This document shows positions 6,288 through 61,744 of a stretch of 64,000 nt of DNA, in pieces (the first letter of the stretch is position 1; every line of letters begins with the position of its first letter). Both the position numbers and the translations under genes were made by a program. The notes beneath the pieces were generated by a model that saw only the letters and a list, made by a program, of their open reading frames with translations, was not told the DNA's origin and did no database searches. The DNA comes from Candidatus Moranbacteria bacterium UBA1362 (lineage in GTDB: Bacteria > Patescibacteriota > Minisyncoccia > Moranbacterales > GWC2-37-73), in the NCBI GenBank assembly GCA_002306085.1, contig DBRS01000014.1, positions 10,690 to 74,689 on the forward strand, written 5' to 3'.

Positions 6288-6323
6288 CCAGCTAAAAATT
6301 CAAAATTTTGAATTTTTAGCTGG
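6288..6323. repeat. Perfect 36-bp palindrome between smpB and tmRNA
   Basis: ccagctaaaaattcaaaa|ttttgaatttttagctgg is exactly self-complementary. Its last two bases overlap the GGGG start of tmRNA. It probably acts as the smpB terminator or as a processing or promoter element. Confidence 0.7.
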
Positions 6324-6728
6324 GGTTGTTTAGTTTCGACAGGTTGTACTTTTCAAAATATGCAAGCCGACCATTGCCGTAATGTCGCCAAACTTTCGGC
6401 AAAGATATAAGTGCAAACTTCATATCAAAAGCAAAAGCGGTTTTCGCAAGAGGATTTGCTTTTGCTCCAGCTTTAGCTTAATTTAACAGCTTTAGCCATC
6501 GGACTGCCGATTTCTCATAAGCAATCTCCGGTGTCAATCATGAGGATAGTTTGATGCGGTTTTCCGGCTGCATCAAGTGAAATTCTTCCGGAAACTGCGC
6601 ATGTCGGGTTTTGTTTATTTCATACCGCATGCGCCGATCTCCGATTTTTTCGGAGGGAAATAAAACAAGCTTGTAGAATATTTTGGATTGTCAATTTTGG
6701 ACATGGGTGCGATTCCCATCAACTCCAC
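6322..6728 (+). ncRNA. ssrA: Transfer-messenger RNA (tmRNA, ssrA)
   Basis: The 5' end GGGGTTGTTTAGTTTCGACAGG matches the tmRNA 5' consensus (GGGGnuG...UUCGAC.GG). The 3' end GGACATGGGTGCGATTCCCATCAACTCCAC matches the tRNA-like T-arm and acceptor. The acceptor stem GGGGUUG/CAACUCC contains the G3:U70 alanine identity pair. An internal tag reading frame (...GCA AAA GCG GTT TTC GCA AGA GGA TTT GCT TTT GCT CCA GCT TTA GCT TAA) ends with ...PALA-stop about 110 nt from the 5' end. CCA is not encoded. It sits directly downstream of smpB. Confidence 0.85.
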
Positions 6729-6883
6729 TGAAAAAATTTTAAATACTAAAGCAACCTGACTACATTCCTTAGGAAAACTAGTCATGGTTCACTAAAGCCA
6801 TAAGAAAGAGATTTCGTTTCAAACCAAAACAACCAACCGGTCCGGCGCCACTAAGAACAAATGAAGCGATCCGGACTCCCTAT

Positions 6884-54540: not shown

Positions 54541-54612
54541 TCCGGCGTAGCGCAACGGTAGCGCAGGGGACTGTTAATCCCTTGGTTGTAGGTTCGAATC
54601 CTACCGCCGGAG
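54541..54612 (+). tRNA. tRNA-Asn (anticodon GTT)
   Basis: Manual fold. The acceptor is tccggcg/cgccgga, the D-arm gcgc-aacggta-gcgc, the anticodon arm gggga-cTGTTaa-tccct and the T-arm gtagg-ttcgaat-cctac. The discriminator is G and CCA is not encoded. Confidence 0.85.
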
Positions 54613-54750
54613 CACTGAAGTGTACTGTGCGTTCTCGAGTATGTAGTTAAAGGGAGAACGTAGCTCAAATAAAAGCTTTTTATCTTGAAGACGGCAGTTC
54701 TGAAGTAGAAAACTTAAGAGTTGCCGTTTTTCGTTTGCTTCAGAGGCGGA

Positions 54751-55489
54751 AAAGGGGTCAGGTACCTTTTTTCGGCCTTCCTCTTGGAATTAATGTAGAA
54801 ATCAGATTTAGTTTCTCGGCTATGTTTTTTATCCAATTTTCATTCCCATAAGGACGACCTCTTTTAATGGAATAATGTATTTTTTCCAATTTGTCTTCTT
54901 CGTTTTTATCAAGAGTATTAACCCATTCAAGATAACCGTCGGGCATTTCAACCGGCCATTTTGCAAGAAGCTTCTTTTGTTCCTCGTTTCCGTTTTCCCT
55001 GATCCAAAGACTGGACCATTTCCAATCTTGAGCCTTTTCAGTCAATCCGGCCCTCAAAGAATTTCTTTCCACATAACGGCAAACTTGCAAAAAATGATTA
55101 TCTTTTTCAACAAGAAAGGATTTGAATCTTCCCTGATAAACATGCCCGCAACCAATAGTTTTGTAATGGGCATGGTAACGTTGAGTGTGGGTATGAGTTA
55201 TCCATCTCATGAAATTTGACAAATCTTCTCCGTTTTTTGGATATAGCACAAAATGCCAATGGTTTGGCATTATGCAATATGAAAGAATTCGCATCGGATA
55301 CTTTTCCTTCGCTTCAAAAAGTATTTTTTCAAACGCTTCGTAATCTTTTTGTTTTTGAAATATTTTTTCTCTGCCATTGGCACGATTCAAGACATGGTAA
55401 ACCATATCGCCAACAGCTGAGCGTGGTATTCTTGCCATGCTCCAATCATATCACAATATTTATTGATAAAAAAGGTACCTGACCCCTTT
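54751..55489. mobile_element. IS200/IS605-family or RAYT-like element bounded by perfect 22-bp inverted repeats
   Basis: The left IR aaaggggtcaggtacctttttt (54751-54772) and right IR aaaaaaggtacctgaccccttt (55468-55489) are exact reverse complements. Each contains the GGTACC palindrome. They flank a single HuH Y1 transposase gene 140 bp from tRNA-Asn. Confidence 0.65.
54758..55438 (-). CDS. IS200-like / REP-associated tyrosine (Y1, HuH) transposase
   Basis: 226 aa. YHVLNRANGREKIF...ILSYCIMPNHWHFVLYP (the HuH motif is HWH) ...YQGRFKSF (catalytic Tyr region). The stop codon lies inside the left IR. Confidence 0.8.
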   Translation of the reverse strand: MARIPRSAVGDMVYHVLNRANGREKIFQKQKDYEAFEKILFEAKEKYPMRILSYCIMPNHWHFVLYPKNGEDLSNFMRWITHTHTQRYHAHYKTIGCGHVYQGRFKSFLVEKDNHFLQVCRYVERNSLRAGLTEKAQDWKWSSLWIRENGNEEQKKLLAKWPVEMPDGYLEWVNTLDKNEEDKLEKIHYSIKRGRPYGNENWIKNIAEKLNLISTLIPRGRPKKGT

Positions 55490-55553
55490 TTCTTTCTCAA
55501 TGTTGAATTGCTTCAAGGCGATGTTCTGCGGATCGGCTCCCGGTATTGTACAA

Positions 55554-56522
55554 CTAGCCAAAAATAACATTAAACAGATATCCCATGACGATTATCCCGA
55601 TAGTGGTTATTCCGAAAAAAATTGCCAGAAGCTGCCATCGCATCACCTTTTTGAGGATCAGTGCTTCAGGCAGTGACAGAGTAACGATTGCAGTCATGAA
55701 AGCTAAGACTGTGCCAAGCGGTGCGCCTTTGCCAACCATTGCATCCATTATTGGAAGAACGCTGACCGAATTGGCATAGAGCGGAACTCCTGACAAAACA
55801 GCCATTGGAACAGTCCACCAAGATTTTGCTGATAAATAATGTTCAACGAAGTTAGCAGGGATAAGACCGTGAATCAAAGCTCCGATTCCGACACCCAAAA
55901 GGACATAGGGAAAAATTTGTTTGGTAATTTTAAATCCATCTGTCCAAAAATATACCATCTGTTGACGAAAAGAAAGTTTATTGCCTCCATTTTCCAGTTC
56001 AACTTGCTTGCGCGATTTGAATTGCATGAGTTCGGGAAGGACATATTTTTCAACTTTTAATTTTTGAATCAACATTCCGCTAATTATTGCAATCGCCAGT
56101 CCGAATAAGTTATATAAAAAGGTTACTTTAATCCCGAAGAGTGCGGGGAAAAGATAGAGCGATGATTCGTTGATCAAAGGAGAGCTTATCAAAAATGCAA
56201 AGGTGATTCCCAAAGGAATGCCCGCACCCATAAAACCGATAAAAAGCGGGATTGATGAGCAGGAACAGAAAGGGGTAACAATCCCCAAAAGGGCGGCAAA
56301 AAGATAATTTAGCCCATACCAACGCTTTTTGGTCAGAATATCCCGTGCTCTTTCCATTGGAAAATAATAACGAGTAATCGCCATTATATAATTGACAACA
56401 ATCAAAAGCAGCCCGATCTTAACCGTGTCGTAAATAAAAAAGTTTATTCCGTCTGAAATTCCGGTATGCTCGGCTAGTTTGAAAACATCATAGGTCAGCC
56501 AATCGGCGAATGTTTTTATCAT
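55554..56522 (-). CDS. DUF318/ArsP-like permease
   Basis: 322 aa polytopic protein with the hallmark TPFCSCSSIP motif of the ArsP/DUF318 permease family. Confidence 0.7.
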   Translation of the reverse strand: MIKTFADWLTYDVFKLAEHTGISDGINFFIYDTVKIGLLLIVVNYIMAITRYYFPMERARDILTKKRWYGLNYLFAALLGIVTPFCSCSSIPLFIGFMGAGIPLGITFAFLISSPLINESSLYLFPALFGIKVTFLYNLFGLAIAIISGMLIQKLKVEKYVLPELMQFKSRKQVELENGGNKLSFRQQMVYFWTDGFKITKQIFPYVLLGVGIGALIHGLIPANFVEHYLSAKSWWTVPMAVLSGVPLYANSVSVLPIMDAMVGKGAPLGTVLAFMTAIVTLSLPEALILKKVMRWQLLAIFFGITTIGIIVMGYLFNVIFG

Positions 56523-56528
56523 ATATTG

Positions 56529-57245
56529 TTATAAATTGATTAAATATCTAATAAGGTATTGTAGATAGTAAATTCCAGCTAAAAGAAAAATTGTGGCAAC
56601 GCTATATCGCATTATTTTTTCAATGTTTTCCATTATATTGTAGATTTTTCCCAATTTTCCGATACTAAAAGCCAAAATAAAAGAAAAAGCAATAACGGGC
56701 AGCCCAGTTCCTAATGCAAACAAAGGAGGCAAAAGTAAACCGCCAGTTGATTTAATAACAAGTGGAATAAGTATTCCGAAAAATAATACTCCACTATAAG
56801 GGCAAAAGGCTAAAGCGAAAACAATACCCAATAGCAGTGTTCCAATATGTCCTTTTGTTGCCAGCCATTGTTTAATTTTTTCAATCTTCTCGTTTCTTGA
56901 GCCAATGTTTATTTTAATAATCCCAAACATTACTAATGCAATCAAGACAAGTAGTATTCCCAATACTTTATCGCCCCATCCCTGAAAAATTTTTGCCACC
57001 TGAAAGGAGGAAAGCCCGAAAAAAATAAGACCTGCCAAGAGCATATAGCTTATGCCCCTTCCCAAAGTATAAATAAAACCGCTGACTAGAGTATGCTTGG
57101 CGGTTTTTATTTCTCTGGAAATAAAAGCGATGGCAGTAATATTAGTTGCCAAAGGGCATGGACTGATGGAAGTCATCACTCCCAAGACAAAAGCAGATAG
57201 CAAGGGGATATTATATTGGTCTATTAAGATATTAAAAAATTCCAT
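56529..57245 (-). CDS. CcdA/DsbD-like transmembrane thiol-disulfide transporter
   Basis: 238 aa with 6 TM helices. The first helix carries SISPCPLAT, the Cys-Pro motif of the DsbD_2/CcdA family. Confidence 0.65.
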   Translation of the reverse strand: MEFFNILIDQYNIPLLSAFVLGVMTSISPCPLATNITAIAFISREIKTAKHTLVSGFIYTLGRGISYMLLAGLIFFGLSSFQVAKIFQGWGDKVLGILLVLIALVMFGIIKINIGSRNEKIEKIKQWLATKGHIGTLLLGIVFALAFCPYSGVLFFGILIPLVIKSTGGLLLPPLFALGTGLPVIAFSFILAFSIGKLGKIYNIMENIEKIMRYSVATIFLLAGIYYLQYLIRYLINL

Positions 57246-57256
57246 ATTTATTCGAA

Positions 57257-57823
57257 TTATTCAATGCAACAATCAATCGCTTTTCTTACGAGATCTCTTA
57301 GTTTTCCGGTAAAACCTGTTGGATTATTGTCGAGCTTGTTAAGCGCATTTTCGTCAATTTTTTTGATTGTTTTTTCAGATTCAACTCCACCGGCTTCTTT
57401 GATGTCATTTGTCCCGATAAGCTTCATATTTAAAGCCCAGAACATTCCATAAAGGTCATAAGATTTTTGGAACAGTTCCTTGGCTTCTTCTTTCTTGCCC
57501 ATTCCCAATTGTTTTGTTCCAACTTCCATAAGCCGCATCGATGCAGCCAGAAGGTGCTTGGAAATGCACCAAACTTCGCCTTCATATTCTTTAATAATTT
57601 TCTGAAGCAAAGACTTGCGCATTTCCCTTACTTCTTTGAGCAAATCAAAATATTCGTCTTTGCCTGTTTTTTCAGCTGTGAAGAAAAAATGTTCCTCAAT
57701 GCTAATAAGATTCATGATGGCAATACTAAGATCTTGATCGGATGATAGATCCATCTTATCCTGTTTCTTCATCTGATCAATTTTTTTCACGAATTCGCTT
57801 AAATTTTTGATTTTGTTTTGCAT
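57257..57823 (-). CDS. Hypothetical helical protein
   Basis: 188 aa. No motif was found. Confidence 0.3.
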   Translation of the reverse strand: MQNKIKNLSEFVKKIDQMKKQDKMDLSSDQDLSIAIMNLISIEEHFFFTAEKTGKDEYFDLLKEVREMRKSLLQKIIKEYEGEVWCISKHLLAASMRLMEVGTKQLGMGKKEEAKELFQKSYDLYGMFWALNMKLIGTNDIKEAGGVESEKTIKKIDENALNKLDNNPTGFTGKLRDLVRKAIDCCIE

Positions 57824-57827
57824 AATT

Positions 57828-58343
57828 TTATTTAGTTAGAAAATAATAAACGACGCTTAAAATGATTAAAGGTGCAATTGGCATTACCACTTTCTGAAAA
57901 GGAAAGTAGGCGTGTCCGTTATTTTTATCTTTGAGATGAAAATACCAGCTGGCGCCAAACCAAAAAGAAATGCTTCCGGCAATTATGCCGAAAAGCAGTT
58001 TGTCTAGACCGCAGTTACAAAAAGTATTTAAGGGATTGCCAATTATCTTGGAATAATGCAGCGGAATTAAGATTAAGGCATAATATCCTGCAATGTTAGC
58101 GTAAATTCTGCCTTTGAATTTGATATTTTTCTTATCCAGCCAGCTTTCCGTCCAAGCAATCATAGAAACGATCAGCCCTCCGATCCAAAGTCCGGTAATT
58201 GAATCATCTATTCCCAGCCAGCGTGAAAGTCCGACACCGGCGCTGACAGCAATTGTGCAAATTGGACAAACCGCCCATGCTTTTTTGGCAAAAATAACCC
58301 CGACTGTAAAAAACGCTAAAAATAACGCTGATTTTTTATTCAT
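57828..58343 (-). CDS. Membrane protein with CPxC and CxC motifs (possible thiol-disulfide oxidoreductase)
   Basis: 171 aa and ~4 TM helices. AVCPICT lies in TM1 and FCNCG in a later loop. Confidence 0.35.
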   Translation of the reverse strand: MNKKSALFLAFFTVGVIFAKKAWAVCPICTIAVSAGVGLSRWLGIDDSITGLWIGGLIVSMIAWTESWLDKKNIKFKGRIYANIAGYYALILIPLHYSKIIGNPLNTFCNCGLDKLLFGIIAGSISFWFGASWYFHLKDKNNGHAYFPFQKVVMPIAPLIILSVVYYFLTK

Positions 58344-58754
58344 TTATTTTTCGTAAATTTTTTGTTTGAAAAAAGCAATGATATCTTTGTCGCCACTCAG
58401 GCATTTTTCTCCGTCCCAAAGAAAGGGAATACCTATTGAATCTTTCGGTATTCCACAGGCTCTGGCTTTTTCTTCCAATTGTTTGAAATTGGCTCGGTCG
58501 CGATAGATCTCCTTTTGAGAAAATTTTATTTTTTCATCTACTTTATTTTTTTTGATGTAGTCTTCCACGATCAAACAATGCGGGCAGCCGTCCCCATAGA
58601 AAAAAATTATATTCTCTTCCGATTCCACTTTCTCCTGAACCGGCATCTCGCTTGCCGGCAATTGCTCTGAGCTTTTATCTTTGAAAAAAGCATAAAATGA
58701 AAATATCAGAGTGAAAATGAATAAGACTGTAGGTATAATGATTTTATTTTTCAT
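58344..58754 (-). CDS. Membrane-anchored glutaredoxin-like protein (CPHC)
   Basis: 136 aa. FFYGDGCPHCLIVEDYI. It is a paralog of 50643..51032. Confidence 0.65.
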   Translation of the reverse strand: MKNKIIIPTVLFIFTLIFSFYAFFKDKSSEQLPASEMPVQEKVESEENIIFFYGDGCPHCLIVEDYIKKNKVDEKIKFSQKEIYRDRANFKQLEEKARACGIPKDSIGIPFLWDGEKCLSGDKDIIAFFKQKIYEK

Positions 58755-58760
58755 GGTTTT

Positions 58761-59243
58761 TTATAATAAACTTTTTATTTCCGAAACAAGATAATCAGAA
58801 AAAGCCTTTTTGTCGGATATTAGTCTCCAAACCCGGGTGTCTTCTTTGATGTTGTCCTTGCCGTCGATAATCGGATTGATAAAAAGCGATGATCCAGCCG
58901 CCTTAAACTTAGCCGCAATTTCCTTATTTTCCGGCAAATCCACGTTAATTTCTTTGAATTCAATTTTTCCTTCATGCAACTCTAATTGAAAGAATTCCTC
59001 AAGCGTTGCTTTCGTGTATTGACCTATTGTTATGCAGGAATGGCAGCGGTTAGTGGAATGAAACATGTAAACCTGGATTTTTTCCGCCGGTTTTGTTTTT
59101 TGAACTTCAGTCTCCTGAGAATTTTTTTGCGTGTTGATGCTGTCGGACTGAGAATTTTTGTTCGAATTTGCGCTTATATAGATAAGTGCTATGGCAAAAA
59201 ACAAAGCGCTTCCATAAAGCAAATATATCCCTAACTTTTTCAT
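58761..59243 (-). CDS. Secreted/anchored CxxC protein (CHSC), possible thioredoxin-like fold
   Basis: 160 aa with an N-terminal TM. VYMFHSTNRCHSCITIGQY. Confidence 0.35.
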   Translation of the reverse strand: MKKLGIYLLYGSALFFAIALIYISANSNKNSQSDSINTQKNSQETEVQKTKPAEKIQVYMFHSTNRCHSCITIGQYTKATLEEFFQLELHEGKIEFKEINVDLPENKEIAAKFKAAGSSLFINPIIDGKDNIKEDTRVWRLISDKKAFSDYLVSEIKSLL

Positions 59244-59264
59244 AATATGCTCCTATCTTAATTA

Positions 59265-59552
59265 TTAGCACTTGCAATTGCAAGAACAAGCCCCGGCCTG
59301 ATTGTTTGCTGACATTTTGTAATTTGCCAATATTTCTTTGATTTGATCAACATCAGGCACTGATCCGGCTATGACTACTTTCTCATCCACAATCAAAACT
59401 GGCATGCTCATTACGTTATATTCCATTATTTTTTGAATGTCGGTTATTTTTTCTACCGTCGTTTCCATTTTTAATTCTTCCAGAGCTTTTTTTGTGTTGG
59501 ATTCAAGTTTTTGGCAATTAGGACAGTCAGAGCCTAAGATTTTAATGTTCAT
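59265..59552 (-). CDS. Thioredoxin-family small redox-active disulfide protein (CPNC active site) with Cys-rich tail
   Basis: 95 aa. MNIKILGSDCPNCQKLE resembles the 'redox-active disulfide protein 2' family that is commonly paired with ArsR and DUF318 permeases. The C-terminus is CSCNCKC. Confidence 0.65.
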   Translation of the reverse strand: MNIKILGSDCPNCQKLESNTKKALEELKMETTVEKITDIQKIMEYNVMSMPVLIVDEKVVIAGSVPDVDQIKEILANYKMSANNQAGACSCNCKC

Positions 59553-59557
59553 AACGT

Positions 59558-59866
59558 TTATTTGATTACTTGATTAAAAATTTTCTTATAATCCTTGATA
59601 GCTTTTTTATTAAGGGAATAGCGGATAAAATTTCCTTCCCTTGTTTCATTCAAAAGCCCTATTTTTTTCAGTTGCTTTAGATGGTGGGAAGCCAATTTGT
59701 CTGAGATGCCGATGGCGGGAATTATTTCGCATACGCATTTTGAGCCTCTCTGAAGAACGCAGAGAATTTTCAGTCTGTTTGGATCGGCGATGGCGCGAAG
59801 AAATGAATATGTTTTGGCAACATCATCCGCCTCTTTTGAATTTTTTCCGCAACAATTGAATGACAT
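59558..59866 (-). CDS. ArsR/SmtB family metalloregulatory transcriptional repressor
   Basis: 102 aa. The wHTH region has the metal-sensing CVCE motif (LKILCVLQRGSKCVCEIIPAIGISDKLASHHLKQLKKIGLL). Confidence 0.85.
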   Translation of the reverse strand: MSFNCCGKNSKEADDVAKTYSFLRAIADPNRLKILCVLQRGSKCVCEIIPAIGISDKLASHHLKQLKKIGLLNETREGNFIRYSLNKKAIKDYKKIFNQVIK

Positions 59867-60033
59867 AAAAAAACTATTCTAGTTTATATTAGAATAGTAT
59901 AATCTTTTTTTAATTTTGTCAAAAGTTCCGGGCCTGTTGTAACAAAAACAAGGCCTTAACGATCTTGTTTATAAAATACTTCCTATGATAGATATGTTTC
60001 GCAACTTTAATATTAGTCATAGCAAGGAATTGA

Positions 60034-60378
60034 TTAAAATGGTTTAGTGATATTTACGTCATCCACTCTGACTTTGTGAGAAATAATCAAAGACTTCAAA
60101 TGTTCCCTGAATTCTTGCATTGGCACAAGCCCGCTTCGTGCGTTTGTCAAAGCTTGAAATCCATCCGCTTTAGTTAAATTCAATCCGAGAGCCACCACTC
60201 CCATATTGAAACCAAGCTGGATCTTCCGCTCTTCGGATAAATCATCCCACTTGTCTACTTGTGTAAATCGTAGCACTTGTTCACAGGCGTGAATAACAAA
60301 ATCATTCATATTATTTCTTATATCTATAATTATATCATAAAAAGCTTTGGAGTTATATTGGTATAAAAAATAACCCAA
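60034..60378 (-). CDS. Hypothetical protein
   Basis: 114 aa with no motif. It lies immediately 3' of the intron-containing tRNA gene. Confidence 0.3.
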   Translation of the reverse strand: MGYFLYQYNSKAFYDIIIDIRNNMNDFVIHACEQVLRFTQVDKWDDLSEERKIQLGFNMGVVALGLNLTKADGFQALTNARSGLVPMQEFREHLKSLIISHKVRVDDVNITKPF

Positions 60379-60440
60379 TAAAAATGGGTTATTTTATCTA
60401 GCTCCGCGAGTAGGACTCGAACCTACAACCAATTGATTAC

Positions 60441-60986
60441 ACATTATCTCTTTGTTTCCAAAAAGGGTGGACTATATCATCTCCTTTACAGGAGTGAGGC
60501 GCTTCCCGGAATTTAAAATTCCAGTACTCTCTTGCAAGATAGTCTCTGAACCTTTCCCGGATGATGGGACTTGGCTGCTGATTACCATAATTTCTGCTGA
60601 GAAATGTTAGGCTTCCAGCAATTCACCTCATTCTTCACTTCCAAATTTCTTTGGAAGGCTGCGAATGTTATTATGCAACTCTCTGTGGCAATTTGCGCAT
60701 ACAAGAATGCATTTTTCAACTTCACCTTTCACTCTCTCCCAGCTGCGGGTCAAACCCGATTGGGAAACGCCAAATTCTTTTTTGAAGAATCGGCATGATG
60801 AAATTCCAATGCATCACTGCAACGATCATAGCCACAAAGCGCACACCTACCGCCTCCATATTGAATTGCCATTTCTCTAAGTTTCTTGCGTCTTTTTGAA
60901 ACAGCCTTGATCATATACTCTCGGCGGTCAGCATATTTTCGGGTATCCTTCATATATTTTAATTATAACATGAAGGAACGTGTACC
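60441..60986 (-). ncRNA. Group I self-splicing intron (inserted in tRNA anticodon loop)
   Basis: The minus strand contains the canonical group I core elements R (GTTCAGAGACTA, plus-strand coords 60541-60552) and S (GATATAGTCC, 60470-60479). The intron ends in G before the 3' exon. The 5' exon ends in U, consistent with a P1 U.G pair. Confidence 0.7.
60583..60953 (-). pseudogene. Decayed HNH homing-endonuclease gene inside the intron
   Basis: The 67-aa ORF 60750..60953 encodes ...GGGRCALCGYDRCSDALEFHHADSSKKN (a CxxC knuckle plus the HH of HNH). The same frame, interrupted by two TGA stops, continues as ...KNAFLYAQIATES..., where the second knuckle (N..LC..CH) has mutated to Y/I/A. Confidence 0.5.
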
Positions 60987-61744
60987 ACAGTCAACTGCTC
61001 TACCATTGAGCTATCGCGGAATATTTAATTTTAAAAATGTTGCCCAATAAAGCAACAAAAGCATTATAACAAAAGATTGCCTGCTTGGCAAGGCTTAAAA
61101 ATGGGCCGGATCTTGAATAACGCATCTGTCTTATCACTTGTTTTTGCGGCGTTTTTCGCGGTTGTCGCCATCGGCATGATTTTGATCGGCTTTGCTTTCA
61201 ATATGTTTTTCTGACAAAAGTAACGGCTTTTCCCGATATTTCGATTTTTTCACGAGAAGCATGTTATTCATCAATTAACATATTCTGTTTTTGTGATAGA
61301 ATATGAACATAACATTAATACAAAAAAATGAACCACAAAAGGCTTGAAGTTTTTCTGGAGTTCCTGTGTTTTGGAGTGATCATGGGCGTTATTGAAGACA
61401 TGATCGCAGTCAGAATCACATCAGGAACACCTATAACATGGAAGGTTTTCGGAGTCATCGTTTTAATAGCGATTCCTTTTGCCTTCATCGGAGAAATGAT
61501 CGTCGACAAGATCAACTTTGTGAAGCTTTTCAGAAGATTCTTTTCAAAAAAACGAAGGGCATAGAAAAAACAGCAAAACAAAATCGAAGCGCCGCAAGGC
61601 GTTTTTTTGTTTGCCGACATCCCTTCCCTGTTCATGCGGAGGATCCAATGATGAGCAATGTTCATCCCGATCACTGGCGACAGAAGACGAAAAAATTCTG
61701 TTTGTACTAAATGTAGGCATGATAATTAATTAATCTTCAAAAAA

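Follow-up and report, generated by a model that had tools for sequence, protein, structure and literature searches.

What lies between the two halves of a tRNA gene found on the minus strand of a contig from Candidatus Moranbacteria bacterium UBA1362, and can the halves still be read as one gene? The DNA analyzed is a stretch of 64,000 nucleotides (contig DBRS01000014.1 of assembly GCA_002306085.1, positions 10,690 to 74,689 of the forward strand), referred to below as the window, and all coordinates are positions within it. The initial annotation, made from the sequence alone, had described a group I intron, with a disabled HNH homing endonuclease gene, inside a tRNA-Asn(GUU) gene. This central reading was borne out; the split tRNA and its intron were confirmed by the ARAGORN cloverleaf and the Rfam match reported below. 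Very probably, the intron is a member of the class that Nakagawa et al. (bioRxiv 2025; mSystems 2026, PMC13011429) described between tRNA positions 35 and 36 in Patescibacteria; it has a subgroup IA-like ribozyme, and the HNH cassette in its P1 loop was disabled by a single recent frameshift.

Exons of the Split tRNA-Asn Gene

The exons 61020-60987 and 60439-60402 of the minus strand together give a 72-nt tRNA-Asn(GUU), with a 547-nt intron between them. The parts are as follows:

60987-61020, minus strand: 5' exon with the acceptor strand TCCGCGA, D arm, anticodon stem strand GTTGA, and loop bases C32-U35 (CTGT), terminating in ...GUUGACUGU
60440-60986, minus strand: 547-nt group I intron of subgroup IA-like type, its last base a G (omega-G, 60440), located between tRNA positions 35 and 36
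60402-60439, minus strand: 3' exon with U36, A37, and A38, stem strand TCAAT, variable loop, T arm GTAGG/CCTAC, acceptor strand TCGCGGA, and discriminator G (60402)

For the manually joined exons, ARAGORN returned a perfect cloverleaf of 72 nt with all stems paired, identified as tRNA-Asn(GUU), with the anticodon loop CUGUUAA that had been proposed earlier. The spliced product has the canonical cloverleaf, the anticodon GUU, and the discriminator G of a tRNA-Asn; CCA is not encoded in the 3' exon. The 5' exon is identical to the 5' exons of two loci from other genomes (L001 and L007). Both halves were located correctly in the initial annotation, except that its end coordinate was off by one, the acceptor strand ending at 60403 and the discriminator G being 60402. 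Its figure of about 80% identity to the intact tRNA-Asn at 54541 agrees with 58 of 72 positions identical without gaps, or 62 of 74 aligned columns.

Putative transcription signals flank the gene:

61063-61091, minus strand: promoter-like site TTGCCA-17 nt-TATAAT, extended by TG and matching 11 of 12 consensus bases
60362-60395, minus strand: terminator-like hairpin directly after the tRNA, with an 11-bp stem and then a U-run, fold of -12.1 kcal/mol

The terminator-like hairpin was not listed by the consensus scan that gave the promoter-like site. Another hairpin followed by a T-run (TGTTGCTTTATTGGGCAACA TTTTT) occupies 61038-61057(-), between the promoter-like site and the 5' end of the tRNA; it looks like a terminator, yet its 5' arm contains the predicted start site.

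Group I Ribozyme and Insertion Site

The Rfam model Intron_gpI (RF00028) matches 60687-60448(-) along its full length (1-253), with a score of 85.1 bits (gathering score 50, E = 3e-20), so that the covariance-model check suggested in the initial annotation did yield a group I match. The R element GTTCAGAGACTA (60551-60540) and the S element GATATAGTCC (60478-60469), previously reported as exact copies, were found as such; a U before the 5' splice site and a G (60440) as the terminal base of the intron, also reported previously, were both seen. The ribozyme comprises the following elements:

60448-60630, minus strand: core helices P3-P9, including P7.1 and P7.2, supported by the Rfam match and covariation
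60659-60662, minus strand: internal guide sequence GCAG, which forms P1 with the exon end CUGU; the pair at the splice site is a U.G wobble
60638-60657, minus strand: P2 hairpin CUUCCAAA-GAAA-UUUGGAAG, with compensatory changes at 7 of its 8 pairs

GCAG[CT] stands upstream of P3, just 5' of a GNRA-capped P2 hairpin, in 66 of the 76 relatives compared. In the intron of locus L049, which has no open reading frame (ORF), the order is CUGU|AGAAAAU-GCAG-P2, and the guide lies 7 nt past the splice site.

For the analysis of covariation, the part from the guide sequence to the 3' end was aligned for 57 homologues, and the structure derived from the window copy (P2, P3, P4, P5/P5a, P6, the pseudoknot P7, P7.1, P7.2, P8, and P9) was projected onto the alignment. 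Standard pairs were obtained in 90.8% of cells, compared to 68.6% after shuffling and at most 46.5% with the partners slid. Compensatory changes were present at 50 of 66 pairs, and none of the 500 shuffles reached any of the observed measures. P7 is invariant across the alignment and hence uninformative for covariation, while P7.1 and P7.2 covary at every pair (4/4 and 8/8 compensatory). These two extra helices, located between P7 and P3' and typical of subgroup IA, fit the IA assignment published for the class (PMC13011429). The split gene keeps every column that is invariant among the 57 homologues, both exons are intact, and the ribozyme itself looks intact. A score above the gathering value, core helices with covariation, a U.G wobble, and a terminal G, as expected of a group I intron, are all present.

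It could be supposed that the halves are unrelated tRNA fragments, such as remnants of an att site, and that the resemblance to group I introns is coincidental, since the region is strain-variable and rich in insertion sequences (IS). However, in 76 pre-tRNAs of different genomes this intron is found between the same two halves, the covariance-model match reaches 85 bits, and the covariation is strong. This possibility, named in the initial annotation as what would overturn its reading, is refuted by these data and has a negligible probability.

Automatic annotation places the insertion site differently. Run without introns, ARAGORN found only the tRNA-Asn at 54541 and a tmRNA and missed the split gene; in the intron-aware mode, it reported a tRNA-Thr(UGU), i(33,547), with the intron two bases upstream. 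A tRNA-Thr (tgt) interrupted at 33/34 is compatible with the splice-site bases: because the intron ends in GUG, the 33/34 and 35/36 boundaries both have a U before the intron and a G at its end. Against this reading, the guide GCAG puts the U.G wobble at U35 and not at U33. Exon 1 ends in CUGU and exon 2 begins with UAA after a G in all 76 homologous pre-tRNAs, of which 48 have introns ending in G-N-G and 28 lack a G at the shifted (33/34) omega position. The tRNA body is also 81% identical to the genome's own tRNA-Asn and carries the discriminator G, and the same ARAGORN/tFind miscall of Thr(UGU) at 33/34 is documented for the class, together with a sequenced 35/36 junction (PMC13011429). The threonine assignment is therefore highly improbable, and the insertion site is placed at 35/36 because of the guide wobble on U35, the consistency of the family, and the published sequences of ligated exons.

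HNH Gene and Its Frameshift

The intron carries an HNH gene in two frames:

60777-60953, minus strand: HNH gene part 1, codons 1-59 in frame 0, from ATG 60953; the frame runs on to a stop at 60752-60750, giving the annotated 67-aa product
60628-60777, minus strand: HNH gene part 2 in the -1 frame, EFGVSQ...CANCHRELH...SEE, with the stop TGA at 60630-60628
60777-60783, minus strand: site of a 1-nt deletion in the run tcAAAAAAg, reading A AAA AAG, an in-phase X XXY YYZ heptamer whose first A is codon position 3

Frame 0 encodes MKDT...HHADSSKK and is then out of frame, the continuation being EFGVSQSGLTRSWERVKGEVEKCILVCANCHRELHNN...SEE in the -1 frame. At this position, the closest intact relative (L001) has tcg gaa aaa gaa and the window tca aaa aa-g aa, i.e., one nucleotide was deleted. 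The two in-frame UGA stops described earlier are out-of-frame sequence after this single deletion at 60783-60777, and the second zinc knuckle, formerly held to be mutated, is intact in the -1 frame, where C86, C89, and all invariant columns are kept. Read with a -1 shift, the gene encodes a protein of 108 aa that retains every invariant column of a 30-sequence family alignment: C37, C40, H52, H53, C86, N88, C89, H90, and H94, with C82...C86-A-N-C89-H90...H94 intact. More than 1000 full-length intact homologues of the repaired protein were found, the best being 90% identical. At E <= 0.01, 15 of the 30 family members match PF01844 (best 1.4e-5), and the family profile matches the HNH domain of the group II maturase 6ME0 (E = 1.2e-4). 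An AlphaFold2 (AF2) model with a predicted local distance difference test (pLDDT) score of 84 has strands at 49-53 and 82-86 followed by a helix at 87-94. The Cys pairs, the His-His, Asn, and His residues, and, in the model, the beta-beta-alpha fold of HNH endonucleases are all found in the -1 frame; the reading frame is interrupted by the 1-nt deletion.

A reassignment of UGA as a sense codon was considered and rejected: UGA ends 15 of 46 long ORFs and also the HNH gene in relatives. The host, a tiny-genome member of Candidatus Moranbacteria (Patescibacteria), the phylum of the published class, uses the standard genetic code; proteins encoded in the window are identical to NCBI proteins from Candidatus Moranbacteria MAGs.

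A single-base lesion in an A-run is the commonest kind of sequencing or assembly error, and the gene might on this ground be intact in reality. However, three independent assemblies from different runs (ENA, Logan, and NCBI) match the window at 100% identity along 681 bp, and each of them has A6. The 67-aa stub occurs on 26 contigs and under four NCBI protein accessions, all from Candidatus Moranbacteria, while the repaired 108-aa protein is not among 15 billion sequences. JGI metagenome contigs gave no match to the site with any A-run of 5-8, so this intron is evidently absent from that collection. An error of this kind is very unlikely; the frameshift is genuine and fixed in all sampled copies.

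The gene could nevertheless be alive if a ribosomal -1 shift at A AAA AAG, or polymerase slippage, restored the 108-aa endonuclease at a low level that may be tolerated. A AAA AAG is the classic slippery heptamer for -1 frameshifting in bacteria and the shift site of dnaX and IS911. In the window, the heptamer is in X XXY YYZ phase from the ATG, and a -1 shift would yield exactly the family-consensus protein. Moreover, the ratio of nonsynonymous to synonymous substitution rates (dN/dS) for codons 60-97, past the lesion, is 0.03-0.07 against intact relatives, in the same range as between intact copies (0.04), and no second lesion is present in the HNH gene. Low dN/dS is, however, equally expected from a very recent deletion. 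The relatives have intact single ORFs without the slippery site at that position, so no selected and conserved frameshift is indicated, and there is no convincing stimulatory structure 5-9 nt downstream of the heptamer, the nearest hairpin being about 18 nt away. A restored endonuclease is thus an unlikely alternative to a disabled one. As judged from its sequence, the HNH gene carries one recent lesion without further decay. The 67-aa stub is devoid of the second half of the HNH motif; most likely, the endonuclease is inactive, and the intron is no longer mobile by means of its own protein.

Embedding of the HNH ORF in the Intron

The ORF fills the P1 loop, which measures 320 nt in the window and 7 nt in the ORF-less intron of L049. 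Its last codons encode the guide sequence (R-S = CGC AGC) and P2, and the 5' strand of P3 begins with the three bases of its stop UGA; any ribosome moving along the precursor would therefore open P1 and P2. In HNH alignments, the guide GCAG is kept as R-S (CGC AGC) or T-Q (ACG CAG). The C-terminal peptide of codons 98-108 (IRSLPKKFGSEE, or ITQLP... in other lineages) is conserved because of its overlap with the guide sequence and P2. This pattern suggests that the RNA constraint outweighs the protein constraint at these codons.

Two features were recognized around the start codon:

60946-60977, minus strand: P1-loop hairpin with a 10-bp stem in the minimum-free-energy fold, the HNH AUG lying in its 3' arm (60955-60946)
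60962-60970, minus strand: extended -10-like motif TGTTATAAT, a putative promoter element 8 nt upstream of the HNH ATG

The motif TGTTATAAT spans the last 3 nt of the hairpin 5' arm and continues into the loop. The AUG is paired with the upstream arm in 50 of 63 relatives, compared to 34.8 in shuffled sequences. The motif was surveyed in the window (60962-60970(-)) together with loci L001 and L007-L086. TATA[AC]T occurs 6-9 nt before the HNH ATG in 45 of 68 tRNA-Asn introns (shuffles: mean 4.1, maximum 10). At the TGn positions, the T is present in 41 and the G in 34 of these 45 copies, and TGnTATA[AC]T often takes the form TGGTATACT.

Complementarity to the start region could account for part of the -10-like motif. 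The stricter proposal that the hexamer TGGTATAC is conserved only as the complement of GUAUGCCA at the start codon was rejected in part. Of 17 copies of this kind, 16 retain the last T of the hexamer, although a pair would be possible for this T in no more than 4 of the 16; moreover, T and never C stands opposite the G of the HNH AUG.

From these patterns and by analogy with I-TevI of phage T4, a tentative model can be put forward, to which we give somewhat less than an even chance. An internal extended -10 promoter would give a leaderless HNH mRNA that lacks the 5' exon and the 5' arm of the hairpin. On the pre-tRNA, the hairpin would pair the AUG and keep ribosomes off P1, the guide sequence, and P2, leaving splicing undisturbed. 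The cassette itself would go back to HNH genes that are free-standing in phages and target tRNA-Asn genes. If true, Patescibacteria would have evolved, inside a tRNA gene, a division of labour between transcripts like that of I-TevI. A keyword search of the part of PMC13011429 covered found no mention of the P1-loop position of the ORF, of a start-codon motif or hairpin, or of phage relatives, and the word promoter appeared there in a T7 context only.

Distribution of the HNH Family

Relatives of the HNH protein occur in at least 552 species-representative genomes. Among the 80 closest HNH loci from other genomes, the gene lies inside the intron of the same split tRNA-Asn in 74, far more than chance would give; three loci are cut by a contig end, and in another three (L049:1501-2158, L082:1026-1785, and L025:1501-2451), a free-standing HNH gene accompanies a tRNA-Asn with an ORF-less intron of 230-251 nt. 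The family is tied to tRNA-Asn genes in 80/80 genomic loci. Viral contigs gave at least 566 further HNH matches, with the gene located in tRNA arrays (IMG/VR loci L087-L166, 43-60% identity). Of 80 viral loci, 52 have a tRNA-Asn as the tRNA closest to the gene (about 12 expected); the tRNA-Asn is on the same strand as the HNH gene in 64 of 65 loci, often within about 40 nt of the ORF. The links to tRNA-Asn are indirect support for a homing function, in which the protein would cut the intron-less allele at or near the insertion site. These associations suggest an HNH family specific to tRNA-Asn genes, free-standing in phages, that was captured by the 35/36 intron.

In L049, the exon-junction-like sequence CACCTGT|AGAGA was noticed upstream of the HNH gene. 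HNH-bearing tRNA-Asn introns were also seen in metagenome-assembled genomes (MAGs) labelled Omnitrophota, Elusimicrobia, Bacteroidota, and others (L034, L044, L061, L069, and L071 among them). These labels outside the Patescibacteria may be binning or taxonomy artefacts; among the genomes treated in PMC13011429, IA introns at 35/36 bearing homing endonuclease genes are reported from Patescibacteria only.

Second tRNA-Asn Gene and Genomic Context

The window contains another tRNA-Asn gene, 6 kb from the split copy:

54541-54612, plus strand: intron-less tRNA-Asn(GUU), a potential homing site

Near the insertion point, it differs from the split copy at positions -13, -8, -7, +6, and +7. It shares its anticodon stem-loop (GGGGACUGU|UAAUCCCU) with the Moraniibacteriota loci L046, L052, and L083, which have an intron at this site.

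The split gene and an ArsR-thioredoxin-DsbD-ArsP-like cluster are carried on a segment (~54745-61324) with 37% GC, compared to 41.5% in the rest of the window. Strain L005 has a 99.8%-identical flank but carries some 7 kb of unrelated genes (NYN, zinc-ribbon proteins, and trypsin-like) in place of this segment. An IS200/IS605-type element with a Y1 transposase (54745-55391; ORF 54758-55438) is present in the window and in L004 and absent from L003 and L006, and L003 has an IS1595-family insertion near 61726 (~61726-61732). Since the segment is strain-variable and missing from a 99.8%-identical strain, the split gene belongs to the accessory genome. The earlier statement that the intron is fixed and its endonuclease decaying needs to be divided accordingly: fixation applies to the frameshift in the sampled copies, not to the intron, which sits in a strain-variable segment with an intron-less copy 6 kb off, and decay through several lesions was not seen.

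The replacement of the low-GC segment in a strain with a 99.8%-identical flank and the IS200/605 and IS1595 variation at its edges would also agree with the split copy being a non-functional passenger of a mobile island, unspliced and unused, while the gene at 54541 does the work. This reading is improbable: the ribozyme and exons are intact, the cloverleaf is perfect, and a strong promoter-like site and a terminator-like hairpin flank the split gene. In addition, the variant strain has no counterpart of the 54541 copy at this locus either, so that either copy could be native.

Elsewhere in the window, a tmRNA gene was identified at 6322-6730(+) (Rfam, 121.6 bits), with the tag peptide ANFISKAKAVFARGFAFAPALA predicted by ARAGORN.

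Proposed Mechanism and Points against It

According to the preferred explanation, transcription of the minus strand would give a pre-tRNA-Asn(GUU) with a subgroup IA-like ribozyme between U35 and U36. The exon end CUGU pairs with the guide GCAG just 5' of P2 as P1, whose U.G wobble marks the 5' splice site. By homology with the class, guanosine would then attack after U35, the terminal G (60440) would dock, and the exons would be ligated to the 72-nt tRNA-Asn. The P1 loop holds the HNH cassette, and the loss of one A from the A-run in this Moranbacteria lineage has reduced its annotated product to the 67-aa stub. The locus can be regarded as a snapshot of the life cycle of a homing endonuclease in a tRNA gene, with an intact ribozyme, one population-fixed frameshift, and an empty potential target 6 kb away.

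Several points weigh against this explanation in one or another of its parts. Splicing of this copy is deduced from its homology to class members that were spliced in vitro at 35/36 (PMC13011429). P10 could not be defined convincingly; the window has a candidate AUU/AAU pairing, which, as part of a coding region, is not conserved. The repaired HNH protein taken alone scores 15.2 bits with PF01844, below the threshold of 21.4, and the top Foldseek matches of the model are HNH nucleases, but weak ones (E >= 0.12). The split copy may be dispensable given the intron-less tRNA-Asn(GUU) 6 kb away, in which case selection does not guarantee its function. Finally, some full-length HNH could be produced by -1 frameshifting at the in-phase A AAA AAG that the deletion created.

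Comparison with Known Systems

The intron of the split tRNA-Asn belongs to the published Patescibacterial class, and every defining feature that could be tested was found. According to PMC13011429, tRNA-Asn introns at 35/36 make up 15 of the 22 tRNA introns in 95 complete Patescibacteria genomes; they are of subgroup IA, and four of the 15 have HNH genes. Self-splicing in vitro is reported there for one tRNA-Asn and one tRNA-Asp intron, with the ligated exons sequenced and joined at 35/36. The 'Asn.4Ug' intron type listed by Williams 2020 (10.1101/2020.01.27.920355) is cited in the same article. The initial annotation had called such an intron unusual; by these counts it is the commonest type of tRNA intron in Patescibacteria, and the HNH family occurs in at least 552 genomes. 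The window copy shares with the class the phylum, the tRNA, the site CUGU|UAA, an IA-type core with P7.1 and P7.2, an HNH gene (present in some members), and the ARAGORN miscall. It differs in that it comes from a Moranbacteria MAG outside the published set of complete genomes, that its HNH gene is frameshifted, and that an intron-less tRNA-Asn(GUU) coexists with it, a situation called rare in PMC13011429.

Standard tools miss or mislabel genes of this kind, which distorts the tRNA complements and completeness estimates of Candidate Phyla Radiation (CPR) genomes, a point already published (PMC13011429). To judge from the present survey, draft genomes contain HNH-bearing tRNA-Asn introns far more often than the four cases in complete genomes indicate, and the endonuclease family is probably shared with phage tRNA arrays; both points bear on how the introns spread.

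The introns of cyanobacterial tRNA-Leu(UAA) and tRNA-fMet and of proteobacterial tRNA-Arg and tRNA-Ile likewise have a short P1 built from anticodon-loop nucleotides and a guide directly 5' of P2, and some tRNA-fMet introns, like the present one, carry a homing endonuclease. However, these introns are mostly of subgroup IC and located at 33/34, 34/35, or 36/37, and the tRNA-fMet endonuclease is of the PD-(D/E)XK type (PMC13011429), in contrast to the IA-like intron at 35/36 with an HNH gene described here.

As in the td intron of phage T4 with I-TevI, and also with I-TevII and I-TevIII (PMC2988022), the endonuclease ORF occupies a peripheral loop, and its 3' end reaches into the ribozyme structure. 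For I-TevI (PMC2988022), the translation start of the precursor is hidden in a hairpin, and transcripts free of the inhibitory arm come from a promoter lying just before the ORF; the same arrangement is predicted here. In T4, it is the ribosome-binding site that the hairpin hides, and the promoters belong to the phage middle or late type, whereas in the window, read from sequence alone, the AUG itself is paired, no obvious Shine-Dalgarno sequence is present, and a sigma-70-type extended -10 motif at 6-9 nt from the AUG would imply a leaderless mRNA.

The CxxC...HH...N...CxxCH...H motif is shared with the En domain of group II maturases (6ME0) and with the small HNH nickases Gme HNH (4H9D) and T4 endonuclease VII. 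The protein considered here differs from them in being a stand-alone protein of 108 aa with an N-terminal basic helix; identity is below 20%, and the fold E-values are not significant. With collaborative homing, in which endonuclease genes invade ORF-less introns (PMC3984707), the likeness is one of genomic arrangement only: free-standing HNH relatives lie beside a tRNA-Asn with an ORF-less 35/36 intron in L049, L082, and L025, and beside intact tRNA-Asn genes in phage tRNA arrays.

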